From assembly GCA_965277805.1 (NCBI GenBank), contig OZ255842.1, forward strand, positions 4,640,001 through 4,704,000: a stretch of 64,000 bases of DNA. Direction: 5' to 3'. The notes beneath the pieces were generated by a model. That model made no database searches, had not been told where the DNA came from, and worked only from the letters and a program-made list of their open reading frames with translations. Every line of letters begins with the position of its first letter. The first letter of the stretch is position 1. Below are positions 2,892-7,779 of the stretch, piece after piece. This stretch comes from Candidatus Lustribacter sp. Its GTDB lineage: Bacteria > Vulcanimicrobiota > Vulcanimicrobiia > Vulcanimicrobiales > Vulcanimicrobiaceae. The translations under genes were made by a program, and so were the position numbers.

Positions 2892-3086
2892 ATGCAAGCG
2901 ATTCGTCGCACCTTGCTGGCCCTCGCAGCAGTCGTGGCCGGCACGGCGCCTGCGGCTGCCCAAACGGCTGCAGCCACGACCGATACCGGACCAAGTCTGT
3001 TGTGGGTTTGGGTCTGGATTCTCGTCGCGGGCATCATCATCATGATCGTCGGCACCAGCCTCGGCGTCAACTCGAACCGCCGTTAA
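2892..3086 (+). CDS. Small signal-peptide plus single-TM protein (64 aa), candidate RC-LH accessory subunit
   Basis: GGAGG upstream of the ATG at 2892; AxA signal-like segment followed by the TM stretch LLWVWVWILVAGIIIMIVGTSLGV. Confidence 0.7.
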   Translation: MQAIRRTLLALAAVVAGTAPAAAQTAAATTDTGPSLLWVWVWILVAGIIIMIVGTSLGVNSNRR

Positions 3087-3089
3087 CCG

Positions 3090-3176
3090 GTGTTCTGGAT
3101 TGTCATGGTGATCTTCGTGGCGGGAATTCTCGTCGCTCCGGTCATCGCGATACTCGCCGGCCGCCGAACGGGATAA
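3090..3176 (+). CDS. 28-aa single-TM peptide (not in ORF track)
   Basis: GTG 3 nt after the previous stop; MFWIVMVIFVAGILVAPVIAILAGRRTG*, a hydrophobic helix with a basic C-terminus. Confidence 0.6.
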   Translation: MFWIVMVIFVAGILVAPVIAILAGRRTG

Positions 3177-3200
3177 GTCGCTAAACGGACGGACCGGGCG

Positions 3201-3911
3201 ATGATGACCGTGCTCCACGTGTTCTTCGGGACGCTGGCACTCATCGTCGCGCCGGTAGCGTTCTGCGTGCGCAAGGGCGGCGCTTGGCATCGCCGGCTGG
3301 GCTTCGCGTTCATACTGGCCATGGCGATCGTGCTCTTCAGTGCCGGGTTTCTGTGGCAAGCCAAAGGTCATATTTTTCTGTTGCCGCTGGCCGCCGTCAG
3401 CGGCTATTTGATCTTCAACGGGTACCGCGCGGTCGTGCGGCATCGGCGGCCCGTTGCCGACCCATTTGAAGATCGCGTCGACATGCTCGCCGCCGGCATC
3501 GCGTTGCTGGCGGCGTCCGGCATCGTCTACCTGGCGGCGACCGCAGCCGGCCCGTTGATGCTGAGCATCCGCCCGGCGCTCGTGGGCATCGGCGCGATCG
3601 CCGTCGCCTTTGCGTCCAACGAGGTGCTGGGATTCTTCGGCCCGCGCATGCGGCTCGGTTGGCTCCTTTCACATTTTGCCGGCATGATTGCCGCCTACAT
3701 CTCCGCCGTCACCGCGTTCGCCGTGATCAACGCGCACGACGTCCCGATGATGGTGCGCTGGATCGTGCCGAGCACGATCGGCGCCTCCCTGATCGTGGGC
3801 CTCACGCTGCGTTACCTCCGGCGCGAGCGGCCGGTGGGGGTGGCCGGATCGAATTGCGGCGAGCCGGTAGCAACGGCTACAGCGCCCGGTCACCGTTTCG
3901 TACTACATTAG
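3201..3911 (+). CDS. Multi-pass membrane protein (DUF2306-like)
   Basis: LH..G...KG..WHRRLG and H...M.AAYISAVTAF patterns; about 6-7 TM segments. Confidence 0.7.
   Translation: MMTVLHVFFGTLALIVAPVAFCVRKGGAWHRRLGFAFILAMAIVLFSAGFLWQAKGHIFLLPLAAVSGYLIFNGYRAVVRHRRPVADPFEDRVDMLAAGIALLAASGIVYLAATAAGPLMLSIRPALVGIGAIAVAFASNEVLGFFGPRMRLGWLLSHFAGMIAAYISAVTAFAVINAHDVPMMVRWIVPSTIGASLIVGLTLRYLRRERPVGVAGSNCGEPVATATAPGHRFVLH
3866..3909 (+). promoter_or_regulatory. NtcA-type box GTA-N8-TAC plus -10 TACATT, predicted pufBA promoter
   Basis: GTAGCAACGGCTAC at 3867-3880; TACATT at 3904-3909, 23 nt after TAC. It lies inside the low-complexity tail of the upstream gene. Confidence 0.68.
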
Positions 3912-3965
3912 CCGCACGTCGTTGCTAGAGGGCCGGTCGCCGGCTCTCAGGAGGGCACACTTTCC

Positions 3966-4157: not shown

Positions 4158-4340
4158 ATGACCGTTCGTACAGGCTACAATTTCCGCGCGGTTCTCGGCG
4201 CCTACATCCTCGCCGGCGTCGTCGTCGCGTTCCTCATCCACTTCATCGTCCTCAGCTCGCCGCGCTACAACTGGATCTTTCCGGTAAACAGCACGACGAT
4301 GACGACGACGACCGTCAATCCAGCACCTGGGGCTAAATAG
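4158..4340 (+). CDS. pufA: Light-harvesting antenna alpha subunit
   Basis: AFLIHFIVLSS..YNW signature. Confidence 0.95.
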   Translation: MTVRTGYNFRAVLGAYILAGVVVAFLIHFIVLSSPRYNWIFPVNSTTMTTTTVNPAPGAK

Positions 4341-4352
4341 GAGCGGAGCGCC

Positions 4353-5171
4353 GTGGCTGATCTCGAGTTTCTCGAGTTTGAGAGCGCCTATCGCAAGCCC
4401 GGCAACACGCTCTTCTCGTTGATCCTGGGCGACGACCCGTTCGATTTCTGGGTCGGCCGCTATTACGTCGGGTTCTTCGGAGTGATCGCGCTGGTCGCGA
4501 TCGCGATGGGGGTAACGATCCTCTTCGTCGCCGTCGGTCAGTACGGGGATTGGGATTTGTTACGTGCGGTGGTACCTTCACCGGACCGGTCGGTCGGTCT
4601 CGGCTGGGCGCCGTTCCTCCATGGCGGTGCGTGGCAAGCCGTGATCATCCTGGCGACGGTGTCGTTCGTCGCGTGGGGACTGCGCGAGGTCGATATCTGC
4701 CGCAAGCTTCAGATGGGCTTCCATATCCCGGCGATGTTCAGCTTGGCGATCTCCGCCTGGGTGGTGCTGCAGATCCTGCGGCCCCTGCTCATGGGCTGCT
4801 GGTGCGAGGGCTTCGATCTCGGCTTCACCGGTCACCTGACGTGGGTTTCCAACACCGGTTTCAAGTACCTGAATTTTTACGACAACCCGTTCCACGCATA
4901 CGCCGTCCTGGGGTTCTTCCTTACGGCGATGGTGCTCGCGATGCACGGCTCAGCGATTCTCGGCACGTACAACACCGATAAAGACCCCAACGTCGAAATG
5001 CGGCGCGAAGACTCGTTCTGGCGCGACTACGTCGGGTACTCGATCGGCGAGTACGGCATCCACCGCCTAGGCTTCTATCTCGCCGTCTACACGCTCGTCA
5101 TGTCGGATCTGTGCATCCTGACGAGCGGGACGCTGGTACAAGACTGGGTCGACTTTTGGCATCCATTCTGA
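4353..5171 (+). CDS. pufL: Type II reaction centre L subunit
   Basis: DPFDFWVG, HLTWVSN, NPFH, MHG and GYSIG..GIHRLG; His L153/173/190/230 equivalents present. Confidence 0.97.
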   Translation: MADLEFLEFESAYRKPGNTLFSLILGDDPFDFWVGRYYVGFFGVIALVAIAMGVTILFVAVGQYGDWDLLRAVVPSPDRSVGLGWAPFLHGGAWQAVIILATVSFVAWGLREVDICRKLQMGFHIPAMFSLAISAWVVLQILRPLLMGCWCEGFDLGFTGHLTWVSNTGFKYLNFYDNPFHAYAVLGFFLTAMVLAMHGSAILGTYNTDKDPNVEMRREDSFWRDYVGYSIGEYGIHRLGFYLAVYTLVMSDLCILTSGTLVQDWVDFWHPF

Positions 5172-6178
5172 TGGCAACGATTCTTCCGCGCCCGATCGAG
5201 CCGCTCGAAGAGGCCGAACCCAGTTCGTTTGATCACGCGGATCCGCTCGGTATTCGCGCCGGCACGCCGACGCGCATCGATCGCTTACGACACATGATGG
5301 TCGATACGCAGGTCGGGACGATCTGGCTCGGTACCTGGGGCGTCTTTTCCGCGATGCTCTTCCTGGCCGGCACCGGCGTGGTCTTTCTGGCGGCGATGGA
5401 CCAAGTCGGCGGCAGTCCGTGGCTGGTGGTCAAGTACTTCGCGAACCTGAACCTCGCGCCGCCCGACGGGTTGGGTTTGGCCCACTCGCTTCGCAACGGC
5501 GGCTACTGGCAGATCACGCTTACATTATGGGCCGGCTCGACGATCTTTTGGGCGGCCCGCTGCTTCGAACGGCTCGCGCGTCACAAGTGGCGCCCGTTCT
5601 TGCTGTTCGCGTGGCTCTCGGCGATTTTTTTGACCGCGTGCATCTGGGTGTTCCATCCGCTGATCGTCGGCTCGTGGGCCGATGCGCCGGCGCTCGGCCT
5701 GAACTCCGATTTGCAATGGGCGCAGAACTTCAGCGTGCTGTGGGGTAACCTGTACTACAACCCCTTCCATCAGCTCGCGATTTTCTTCTTACTCGGCAGT
5801 ACGATGCTCTGGGGGATGCACGGCGCAACGATCCTCGCGACCGGCAGCGAGAGCAGCCATCACGAGGATGCCGAGATCAAGAACATGAGCTCGGGCTCCC
5901 AGAAAGCCGCGCTGTTCTGGAAATGGACCATGGGCTTCAACGCCTTTCCGAAGTCGATCCACGACTATCTGTGGTGGTTTGCGGTGGGAACGGTGTTGGC
6001 TTCGGGTATCGGCATCCTTACCACCGGCGTTATAACGCGGGACTGGTACGTTTGGGGCGTCGATCACGGTACCGTTTCGCAGTACGGTCCGATAACACGT
6101 GAGGCGATCAACGAGTATCCTCGGCCGATGCCTCCCATGCCGGCTCCGGGCGGCTACATGCCGGCTCCGGCCAGATAA
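5171..6178 (+). CDS. pufM: Type II reaction centre M subunit
   Basis: GNLYYNPFH, MHGATIL, AALFWKWTMGFNA and SIH; TGATG overlap with pufL. Confidence 0.97.
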   Translation: MATILPRPIEPLEEAEPSSFDHADPLGIRAGTPTRIDRLRHMMVDTQVGTIWLGTWGVFSAMLFLAGTGVVFLAAMDQVGGSPWLVVKYFANLNLAPPDGLGLAHSLRNGGYWQITLTLWAGSTIFWAARCFERLARHKWRPFLLFAWLSAIFLTACIWVFHPLIVGSWADAPALGLNSDLQWAQNFSVLWGNLYYNPFHQLAIFFLLGSTMLWGMHGATILATGSESSHHEDAEIKNMSSGSQKAALFWKWTMGFNAFPKSIHDYLWWFAVGTVLASGIGILTTGVITRDWYVWGVDHGTVSQYGPITREAINEYPRPMPPMPAPGGYMPAPAR

Positions 6179-6190
6179 GGCGCAACAGCG

Positions 6191-7102
6191 ATGCGGCGGA
6201 CTTGGCTTGGCGTTTTCACGATCGTGTTCGGTCTCACGTTCGGCGGCCTGATACAGCCGCTCGTCGAACGCACCCATGCCGCGACGATCGTTACCGGCGA
6301 AGACAACGGTGGAACGATCGGGACGGGCGTGGAGACTCCGCCGCACGCGCCGCGTTACGGTCCCGTGGATCAGAAGGCGCCGTTGGACTTCAAGACGCAG
6401 CCGGCGGGCGTTCCGCACGCCTATGCCGCCGGTCGCCTATACAACGTGCAAGTCCTCAAAGGCGGCTATGGCGACGTCGTCGCGCAGATGACGGATTACA
6501 CGCAAGCGCTGGGGGTCGGCTGCGAGTACTGCCACAACACGAGCAATTTTGCGTACGACACGCCGACGAAGCAAATCGCGCGCACGATGATCAAGATGGT
6601 CGGAAGCATTCAGACCGACTGGGTCGGGCCCGTTCATAAGGATTTTCCCAACTTTGCCGTCACCGGCGCCGTCGGGTGCATCACGTGTCATCGCGGTTCG
6701 CCGCTGCACCCGGTGGCCTACAACATCGTGCCCGTCCAGTATCTGGACTGGCCGGCGAAATCCAGCCGTCAGGCCGGCTTCGTCGTCAACTCGATGTACT
6801 CGGTGTCAAAATCGCTGGGCGTGAACTGCCTGTTCTGCCACAACTCGGCCGACTTCGTGACGCTCCAGTCGTATCCGACCAATCGGATCGCTCACCGGAT
6901 GTGGCAAATGGTCGACACGATCAATCACAAATATTTGCCCCCGAACATTGAAGCCGTTACGTGCTACACGTGCCATCACGGCGCAAAGTGGCCGACCGAA
7001 CTTGTTGCCGGAGGAGAAGATCAGTCTCCGGCAAAAGCGCGAGCCCTGCGCCCCGAAGTCCACCTCAATCCGGGAGCGCACACGGCCTCGGGAGTTCAGT
7101 GA
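6191..7102 (+). CDS. pufC: Reaction-centre tetraheme cytochrome c
   Basis: Four CxxCH motifs (CEYCH, CITCH, CLFCH, CYTCH) in two repeats; N-terminal hydrophobic segment. Confidence 0.93.
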   Translation: MRRTWLGVFTIVFGLTFGGLIQPLVERTHAATIVTGEDNGGTIGTGVETPPHAPRYGPVDQKAPLDFKTQPAGVPHAYAAGRLYNVQVLKGGYGDVVAQMTDYTQALGVGCEYCHNTSNFAYDTPTKQIARTMIKMVGSIQTDWVGPVHKDFPNFAVTGAVGCITCHRGSPLHPVAYNIVPVQYLDWPAKSSRQAGFVVNSMYSVSKSLGVNCLFCHNSADFVTLQSYPTNRIAHRMWQMVDTINHKYLPPNIEAVTCYTCHHGAKWPTELVAGGEDQSPAKARALRPEVHLNPGAHTASGVQ

Positions 7103-7779
7103 TGGATTTCTTTTGGAGTCTGCCTAAAGCCAGCATCGCCGGTCTAAACGATCCGCTCAACGAGCTTTTTGCGACCGTCCAGCCGCGCCGATACGACGAG
7201 CGAACGATCATCAGCGATCCCGACAACGGACCGGAGCGCGCGTTCCTATGTACGAGCGGAACGCTGAAGGTTACGAAGCTGCTCTCCAACGGGCGCGAGA
7301 TCCTAATCACGATCCTCGAATCGGGTTCGATTTGGAGCGATCGTTCCTTGCTCAAGGGCTATTGGCGCGAGGTCTACATCGAGACGATGTCGGCCGTGAA
7401 TATGGTCTCGATCGAAAAAGAGGCGTTCGAACGGTACGTCTGTAGCGACTCGGAGCGCCTGACGCAGTTCATGATGCGGATCTCGGAACAGATGAGCGAT
7501 GCGCTCACGCTGCTCGAGGATTTCCGCGGGCGTGACGTCGCCTCGCGCCTAGCTTCCGTGCTCGTGCGCTTTTCCAAACAGTACGGCGTAGAGAAAGAAA
7601 GTTCGGTCGTCATCGACCTGCCGTTTACGCATCAAGACCTCGCCAACATGATCGGCACGGCTCGCGAAACCGTCAGCCGCAACATGGCCCGCTTCCGCGC
7701 CGAGGGCTACCTCCGGGGCGGCCAGATGGCTACTCTCGAGATCCTCAACCTCAATTCGCTCGAGGCCCTCATCGTCTAG
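7102..7779 (+). CDS. Crp/Fnr-family regulator with CRP-like recognition helix
   Basis: HTH FTHQDLANMIGTARETVSR; TGATG overlap with the pufC stop. Confidence 0.92.
   Translation: MDFFWSLPKASIAGLNDPLNELFATVQPRRYDERTIISDPDNGPERAFLCTSGTLKVTKLLSNGREILITILESGSIWSDRSLLKGYWREVYIETMSAVNMVSIEKEAFERYVCSDSERLTQFMMRISEQMSDALTLLEDFRGRDVASRLASVLVRFSKQYGVEKESSVVIDLPFTHQDLANMIGTARETVSRNMARFRAEGYLRGGQMATLEILNLNSLEALIV

Follow-up and report, generated by a model that had tools for sequence, protein, structure and literature searches.

Two conserved single-helix membrane peptides encoded beside the puf operon of Eremiobacterota as candidate photosystem parts

Small helices have repeatedly been found to decide ring opening and quinone traffic in photosynthetic complexes, and they are routinely missed by annotation. 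PufX, PufY (protein-U/Y), W and Z are genus-restricted single-helix subunits that shape the light-harvesting (LH) 1 ring for quinone exchange, with pufX lying downstream of pufM, and in Rhodobacter a small membrane protein, PufQ, is encoded directly upstream of pufB, is co-transcribed with puf and acts in bacteriochlorophyll synthesis. Here we describe two very short open reading frames (ORFs), ORF64 and ORF28, which precede the puf operon of a Candidatus Lustribacter sp. in a 64-kb stretch of contig OZ255842.1, hereafter the window. The window contains the photosynthesis gene cluster of a phototroph from the phylum Eremiobacterota, whose genome (G000; other G and L numbers denote other genomes and loci) is a single contig of 5.53 Mb and 95% complete. 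The reaction centre (RC) of the Eremiobacterota is without H subunit, its L and M genes are separate and the pufBALMC order resembles that of proteobacteria; Chloroflexota reaction centres are likewise H-less.

The RC-LH complex of Roseiflexus castenholzii, also H-less, holds three small additional helices, X, Y and Z, as an earlier note on this DNA had stated (PMC10516601). Passages of that paper give X as 32 amino acids (aa), Y as the product of a 120-nucleotide (nt) coding sequence (∼39 aa) and Z as the helix of a hypothetical protein of ∼60 aa, and describe X and Y as having been unannotated micro-ORFs. The same passages place the N-termini of Y and Z in the periplasm, with X inserted opposite to LH alpha/beta, and mention the placement of PufX and PufY.

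Comparison of loci shows that ORF64 and ORF28 are real, conserved genes and confirms, at the level of gene order and upstream motifs, that they form a conserved three-gene membrane module beside puf with a third gene, ORF236, and a promoter motif in common with pufB. As far as tested, the members of the module are confined to phototrophs. The earlier note had placed the two micro-ORFs upstream of pufBA; the linkage stood and the order is kept among relatives, although ORF236 (3201-3911), which the note had missed, intervenes. The two peptides are good candidates for new photosystem parts, and our best but tentative reading, to which we give somewhat less than an even chance, is that they serve the H-less RC-LH complex as accessory helices peculiar to one clade.

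ORF64 and ORF28 resemble Roseiflexus X, Y and Z in being short single-helix polypeptides, here encoded beside the genes of an H-less RC, and the topology predicted for them would be the same. They differ in belonging to another phylum, in the cleavable-looking signal peptide of ORF64 and in the position of the module beside puf; moreover, X, Y and Z are proven in the complex, whereas ORF64 and ORF28 are candidates. Like the PufX-type subunits they are lineage-restricted, patchy single helices, and unlike them they lie in a module that is 5′ of puf and appears to be separately transcribed, while the PufX-type complexes have an H subunit. As with PufQ, small single-helix proteins are encoded 5′ of pufBA within a photosynthesis cluster; unlike the PufQ case, pufB here has a conserved promoter of its own and no Pfam family (E≤0.01) was found for either peptide. 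The genes concerned are the following.

1-1053 (left end of the window): crtB
1055-2131, + strand: Crp/Fnr-family regulator of 358 aa (Pfam HTH_Crp_2, cNMP_binding and Crp)
2093-2758, - strand: plsY-like gene (G3P_acyltransf, Pfam PF02660, E 2e-16), divergent from ORF64
2892-3086, + strand: ORF64, 64 aa, ATG at 2892 and TAA at 3084-3086
3090-3176, + strand: ORF28, 28 aa, GTG at 3090 and TAA at 3174-3176
3201-3911, + strand: ORF236, seven-helix membrane protein of 236 aa
3966-4139, + strand: pufB (Pfam LHC; NCBIfam pufB)
4158-4340, + strand: pufA (Pfam LHC; NCBIfam pufA)
4353-5171, + strand: pufL (Pfam Photo_RC)
5171-6178, + strand: pufM (Pfam Photo_RC)
6191-7102, + strand: pufC (Pfam CytoC_RC)

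Conservation of the three-gene module

ORF64 is preceded by a Shine-Dalgarno sequence (GGAGGAG, 2876-2882, + strand, 9 nt 5′ of the ATG), and a GGAGG-like sequence is present in most loci. Its basic N-end and Ala-rich core make residues 1-23 read like a signal peptide, with a conserved AAAQ; the mature protein of ∼41 aa would carry a Trp-rich helix, LLWVWVWILVAGIIIMIVGTS (residues 36-56), with RR at the C-terminus. A collection of 5.8 billion clusters yielded 44 homologues of 48-75 aa (51-94% identity), none of which has a Pfam domain or a telling name, and the ORF64 profile matched just 27 of 1.84 billion cluster representatives, indicating a family that is real yet narrow. In the alignment, G33, L36, V39, W40, W42, I43, L44, V45, G47 and G54 are invariant; the signal-peptide-like N-terminus is variable, while AAAQ and the segment GPSLLWVWVWILVAGIIIMIVGTS are nearly fixed. 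Judged from this pattern, the constraint is far above the need of a generic membrane anchor. The predicted topology is a signal peptide plus one helix, N-out/C-in after cleavage, because of the positive-inside rule and the signal peptide. A Tat signal was considered and rejected, since the RR of the N-region becomes RD, SR, RS or RC in homologues.

ORF28 encodes 28 aa (MFWIVMVIFVAGILVAPVIAILAGRRTG) with one helix. Its length alone is not above chance, given 124 ORFs of at least 20 aa in 9 kb, and it is regarded as a real gene because of its conservation: 17 of 19 loci have a homologue directly after ORF64, the remaining two contigs stopping at ORF64, and pairwise differences among 13 distinct copies number 686/429/1169 at codon positions 1, 2 and 3, a pattern of the coding type with most changes at the third. 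M1, F2, W3, M6, F9, P17 and A20 are invariant, by way of varying synonymous codons. Of 16 copies, 14 begin with GTG and 2 with ATG, which fits a start codon better than an internal valine. Each of the two peptides has a single hydrophobic stretch, 22-23 residues long, and carries RR at its C-terminus, so that by the positive-inside rule ORF28, too, is predicted to be N-out/C-in. Read-through from ORF64 into ORF28 was rejected: the two share a reading frame in the window (TAA CCG GTG), but start offsets in L045, L049 and L050 are not multiples of 3, which makes them separate genes.

The earlier note had called the two peptides unannotated. Their exact sequences are absent from a collection of 15 billion proteins in which ORF236 of the same contig is present, and for this reason they appear to have gone unannotated in the public record. 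No family was assigned to either by Pfam (E≤0.01) or NCBIfam; weak NCBIfam matches (VraH, CcmI and SCO2097) fell far under their cut-offs and were discarded as hydrophobic noise.

Within the module the intergenic gaps are 3 nt (CCG) between ORF64 and ORF28 and 24 nt between ORF28 and ORF236. The order crp-plsY(-)-ORF64-ORF28-ORF236-pufB-pufA-pufL is kept down to ∼51% ORF64 identity; the module order recurs in three further genomes, G290 (L041), G307 (L075) and G382 (L040), and in 15 metagenome contigs. ORF236 accompanies ORF28 in all 17 of the loci mentioned above. Each of the 11 loci long enough to show it has pufB after the module, while five contigs end in ORF236 and one locus (L045) diverges within it, and crp lies upstream in 10 of the 11 loci reaching that far, the match of L044 being elsewhere.

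The phyletic survey comprised 401 Eremiobacterota genomes, 29 with and 372 without pufL; as related genomes are not independent, the counts that follow overstate the statistics. The ORF64 profile matched 5 of the 401 genomes, and all five are among the 29 with pufL. The ORF28 profile, searched in those 29 genomes and in the loci compared here, gave strong matches in 5 (G000, G290, G307, G382 and G311) and a weaker one in G195 (E 0.018; hhalign probability 94%). G311 has the order ORF28-ORF236-puf, with ORF64 missing; G195 has its ORF28-like gene between pufB and crp, after a perfect box and -10 element of the kind described below, with ORF236 on another contig. ORF28 is thus the member most faithfully tied to puf, since both genomes keep it there, and it is a stronger candidate than ORF64 for an accessory helix. 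Orthologues of ORF236 at 48% identity or more were found in 14 of the 29 pufL+ genomes and in 0 of the 372 others. Matches at 29-42% identity occurred in six pufL- genomes, with additional copies of this grade in two pufL+ genomes (G298 and G381), and in the five loci inspected these paralogues adjoin PadR-type regulators. One of the six pufL- genomes, G036, is flagged as unpublished, and none of our conclusions depends on it.

Contigs of four metatranscriptomes offer a weak hint of expression of ORF64, ORF28 and ORF236. RNA libraries of three studies cover ORF64 (from relatives), and one set of contigs spans 3153-3303 and 3603-3753, parts of ORF28 and ORF236, with no mismatch; such contigs attest presence only and reveal neither strand nor ends nor level, genes cannot be ranked by their depth, and some of the signal may stem from carried-over DNA. 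No contig bridged a gene junction by 31 letters on each side.

Promoter boxes and regulators

NtcA-type class II promoters carry a GTA-N8-TAC dyad ∼22 nt upstream of a TAN3T -10 element. Two boxes in promoter position, and only two, were found in the 64-kb window, each with a -10-like hexamer.

2782-2795, + strand: ORF64 box, GTGCCGACCGCTAC (GTG-N8-TAC), Crp/NtcA-type, conserved in 9 of 15 loci
2819-2824, + strand: ORF64 -10-like hexamer TAGTAT, 23 nt past the box, with the geometry of a class II activator site
3867-3880, + strand: pufB box, GTAGCAACGGCTAC (GTA-N8-TAC), a perfect palindrome inside the 3′ end of ORF236
3904-3909, + strand: pufB -10-like hexamer TACATT; TACATT, TACAAT or TAGAAT is kept 21-25 nt after the box

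Both boxes fit the class II activated pattern, with the dyad ∼22 nt 5′ of a TAN3T -10, and a dyad ∼42 nt before the likely start suggests activation geometry of the Crp/Fnr/NtcA type; the predicted transcription starts lie near 2831 for ORF64 and near 3916 for pufB. The ORF64 box, a variant of the pufB GTA-N8-TAC site, is found between -77 and -112 relative to the ORF64 start in 9 of 15 upstream regions, and in the same nine loci TAGTAT, TAGAAT, TATTAT or TATACT follows 20-24 nt past it; GTGCC-N4-GCTACAAC and the TAGTAT-like hexamer are the sole conserved blocks of the upstream alignment. The NtcA-like box reported in the earlier note, as well as the coordinates, sequences and 3-nt gap of the two micro-ORFs, agreed with the sequence on checking.

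All of 23 distinct Eremiobacterota pufB upstream regions, taken from loci L001-L105, have a GTA-N8-TAC-type box (GTAGC-N4-GCTAC and close variants) with constant spacing to pufB; it resembles an operator of the puf promoter, common to the phylum, for a regulator of the Crp/Fnr type. The syntenic Crp-family regulator (1055-2131) is a candidate binder of these boxes, and the module may be co-regulated with puf. As box and -10 element are conserved before pufB, pufBALMC appears to have its own promoter, and ORF64-ORF28-ORF236 would be a separate unit. A search of the window for a wider regulon of the box was uninformative (32 sites at 2 mismatches vs 21.4 expected).

Several further features of these regions were observed. 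A 9-bp hairpin (3928-3948, + strand; -26.9 kcal/mol, z -2.9) lies in the presumed pufB 5′ leader, between the predicted transcription start and the Shine-Dalgarno sequence, and is not clearly conserved in other loci; it was rejected as a terminator for want of a U-tail and may be an mRNA-stabilising 5′ structure. The first Crp/Fnr regulator has an N-terminal extension of ∼150 aa with no Pfam match, which may be a sensor domain. The plsY-like acyltransferase gene, an odd resident of a photosynthesis cluster for a housekeeping lipid gene, is kept in its position divergent from ORF64, with the promoter region in common, in 14 of 19 loci.

The reaction centre and known small subunits

In the window pufL and pufM overlap (TGATG, 5169-5173) as separate genes, unlike the fused pufLM of Roseiflexus. 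PufL has no close relative among L chains in the PDB, the best match being that of Roseiflexus (E 6e-93). No puhA was found with PF03967 and TIGR01150 in the 5.53-Mb genome, in a search whose controls held no purple bacterium and whose sensitivity is unproven; part of the text of Ward 2019 likewise gives WPS-2 as lacking puhA. A search for PUCC-family (LhaA/PucC) genes, positive in 9 of 14 reference genomes used as controls, detected none in this genome. With neither a PUCC-family gene nor puhA, LH assembly must rely on other factors. No structure or subunit list of an Eremiobacterota RC-LH complex was found in the literature searched. PufC begins with a hydrophobic segment, WLGVFTIVFGLTFGGLIQPLV (6191-6290), without a lipobox Cys; by analogy with the cytochrome c helix of Roseiflexus, which touches X and Y, its N-end could be a membrane anchor that is not cleaved.

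Relatives of the two peptides were sought among 177,635 distinct PDB sequences (chains of at least 20 aa) by phmmer and hmmsearch, using profiles A1 and A2 and the single sequences. At E≤10 no chain of a photocomplex was matched, in a search of low power for peptides this short; the sole matches were a flavohaemoglobin, a dehydrogenase and aquaporin-7. Roseiflexus entries were in the searched set, as their L chains matched, and the likeness of the 28-mer to Roseiflexus protein Y that the earlier note had suggested was therefore not borne out. Neither peptide matched the LHC family (PF00556), which PufB and PufA do match, and neither belongs to the PufX, PufY or protein W families as represented in Pfam, NCBIfam and PDB sequences. 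By these comparisons, ORF64 and ORF28 represent new families that have no sequence kinship with the known accessory subunits. No description of ORF64, ORF28 or ORF236 was found in the literature on Eremiobacterota phototrophy or DUF2306 proteins, supplements excluded. A predicted complex of PufL, PufM, ORF28 and mature ORF64, made with an alignment per chain, gave an ipSAE of 0.00 in both runs; as it had no controls and the partner fold was uncertain, the result is neither support nor counter-evidence.

Possible roles of the two peptides

In our best explanation the two peptides are accessory helices of the RC-LH complex, and ORF64, ORF28 and ORF236 are co-expressed as a small operon directly upstream of pufBALMC, driven by a Crp/Fnr (NtcA-like) activator via a box of the pufB type. 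The ORF64 signal peptide would be cleaved after AAA prior to insertion, and both helices would insert with a periplasmic N-terminus and the RR tail in the cytoplasm. They would then join the H-less core as accessory subunits of the clade, their invariant Trp, Gly and Pro faces packing on PufL/M, on the PufC anchor or on the LH ring. By analogy to Roseiflexus X, Y and Z, they may stabilise the RC-LH contact or keep a quinone path open. We infer the contact with the complex itself. Two conserved, promoter-linked candidates are now available for assignment in density maps and mass spectra, with expected masses of ∼3.0 kDa for ORF28 and ∼4.2 kDa for mature ORF64, whose N-terminus may be a pyroglutamate; the analysis further yields a DUF2306-like protein specific to phototrophs, a pufB promoter box common to the phylum and a candidate regulator for that box.

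A number of observations weigh against this reading. The full module adjoins puf in only 4 of the 29 pufL+ genomes, with ORF28 alone in 2 more, and other, unrelated genes lie 5′ of pufB in G031, G005, G011 and G021; as most pufL+ relatives are without the module, it does not belong to the core of the phylum's photosystem. G005 carries the only ORF64-like gene outside the clade (47-49% identity), located upstream of an MFS transporter, with no box in the 250 nt before it and no photosynthesis genes in the vicinity. ORF236 occurs alone elsewhere in nine pufL+ genomes. Tight spacing joins ORF64 and ORF28 to ORF236 and not to pufB, which has its own promoter separate from that of the module. Neither peptide contains His or another obvious pigment ligand, and the PDB search returned no photocomplex chain. 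By the coordinates published in PMC10516601, ∼29 kb separate the Roseiflexus genes for X and Y, so that puf linkage is not a trait of that precedent. Lastly, no proteomic, structural or strand-specific transcript evidence was found in the sources searched.

The best-surviving alternative assigns the peptides to ORF236. In this case ORF64 and ORF28 would be small subunits or helpers that stabilise a DUF2306-type membrane enzyme, possibly a haem-dependent oxygenase, which tailors a carotenoid, the bacteriochlorophyll tail or a quinone; we consider this a serious but doubtful explanation. It accounts for the 3-nt and 24-nt spacing and for the presence of ORF236 after ORF28 in each locus reaching that far, crtB lies 2 kb upstream, and by analogy single-helix subunits stabilise other membrane oxidoreductases.

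What is known of ORF236 bears directly on this alternative. Its AlphaFold2 model has a pLDDT of 81 and seven helices. The Pfam DUF2306 match scores 20.6 bits against a cut-off of 31.6 and covers residues 4-55 only; of 73 homologues, 8 have PF10067 among their precomputed matches, and the nearest clusters in the Atlas (language-model) are DUF2306 (score 0.92). A Foldseek search of the model against the PDB gave nothing at E≤0.001, and a wide VIA-align search gave only generic helical bundles and was set aside, the best being a soluble PhoU-like protein at Z 11.3, where helical models reach ∼13 by chance. ORF236 is thus best described, on its sequence matches, as a divergent DUF2306-like subfamily that is phototroph-only in the 401-genome sample. 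Because of five nearly invariant His residues (H6, H30, H57, H158 and H179) and a distribution that is patchy yet confined to phototrophs (14 of 29), it could, by analogy, be a membrane enzyme that tailors pigment or quinone. As stated in part of PMC12895699, the fungal DUF2306 protein PraC is needed for the terminal epoxidation of a hydrophobic polyketide, and a passage of bioRxiv 10.64898/2025.12.11.692455 lists DUF2306 among hypothetical haem-binding families; no chemistry was shown for any bacterial member in the DUF2306 papers found. Like PraC, ORF236 is polytopic in the membrane with a weak DUF2306 match; unlike PraC, it stays under the curated cut-off, with a match to its first ∼55 residues only, and has 236 aa and seven helices vs 393 aa and five predicted helices for PraC in the portion of PMC12895699 that describes it.

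Against a partnership with ORF236 stand, besides the sub-threshold DUF2306 match, the genomes in which the genes are parted. No peptides were found near the lone ORF236 copies of the nine pufL+ genomes (8 of the 9 regions and G031 inspected), and none of seven unlinked homologues examined had a box within 250 nt 5′ of it; G195 has its ORF28-like gene at puf with ORF236 elsewhere, and G005 has an ORF64-like gene with no ORF236. Were the peptides nonetheless partners of ORF236, interest would move to ORF236 as a membrane enzyme of a new kind, acting in pigment or quinone chemistry.

That ORF64 and ORF28 are general small membrane proteins, not photosynthetic, which travel with puf in one clade, is unlikely. 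The G005 homologue in its non-photosynthetic neighbourhood, the DUF2306-like paralogues beside PadR regulators in pufL- genomes and the narrowness of the family (27 representatives) would suit such an origin, but all five genomes with ORF64 have pufL, linkage is kept to ∼51% identity and the promoter carries a pufB-type box.

In purple bacteria, LhaA/PucC-type or Puh proteins act in RC-LH assembly, and the peptides might instead be transient assembly factors, absent from the mature complex. The missing PUCC-family gene leaves room for such a factor, a transcription unit apart from pufBA would suit a lower stoichiometry, and a puf-type promoter box is held in common; we nevertheless regard this role as quite improbable, for most phototrophic relatives assemble RC-LH without ORF64 and ORF28, and neither peptide resembles any known assembly factor in Pfam or NCBIfam. 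Finally, ORF28, and perhaps ORF64, is very unlikely to be a membrane peptide modulating the adjacent Crp-family regulator: although the ORF28-like gene of G195 stops 4 nt before crp behind a GTA-N8-TAC box and crp is syntenic in 10 of 11 long loci, crp in the main clade is a separate unit beyond a divergent gene, and the regulator's Pfam profile contains no predicted membrane segment.

Returning to the accessory-helix reading, a wider form of it would hold that the phototrophic Eremiobacterota evolved their own single-helix photosystem subunits, with no sequence relation to PufX or to Roseiflexus X, Y and Z, including ORF28 and ORF64 as well as tandem proteins of the G011/G168 clade, as structural parts of RC-LH, perhaps with ORF236 docked as a cofactor tailor. 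If true, this would be a third independent way to build a type-II core complex without H, with helices that stabilise the complex or gate quinone. We put this wider proposal forward as a speculative one, which is possible but on balance doubtful.

The tandem proteins are of interest in themselves. In L018 (G011; 6256-7194) and L104 (G168; 4961-5965) two tandem genes precede pufB and encode signal-peptide-plus-helix proteins of 87-108 aa with the motif GYPGPPxWFWIL, accompanied by a divergent gene for a 39-aa helix peptide; the tandem genes of G168 are preceded by GTA-N8-TAC-type boxes. The architecture of these small proteins is like that of ORF64, but a comparison of the G011 proteins with the ORF64 profile did not establish homology (hhalign probabilities of 51% and 7%).

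Beyond the puf operon, the window continues with the following features, so that the first and second Crp-family regulators flank puf.

6961-7779: second Crp-family regulator
after the second regulator: bchF, C, X, Y and Z and further bch genes

Elsewhere in the phylum, G011, G168, G177 and G171 each have two equal-scoring pufL copies 26-37 kb apart, G171 with additional split partial copies, and these pairs point to duplicated puf regions.

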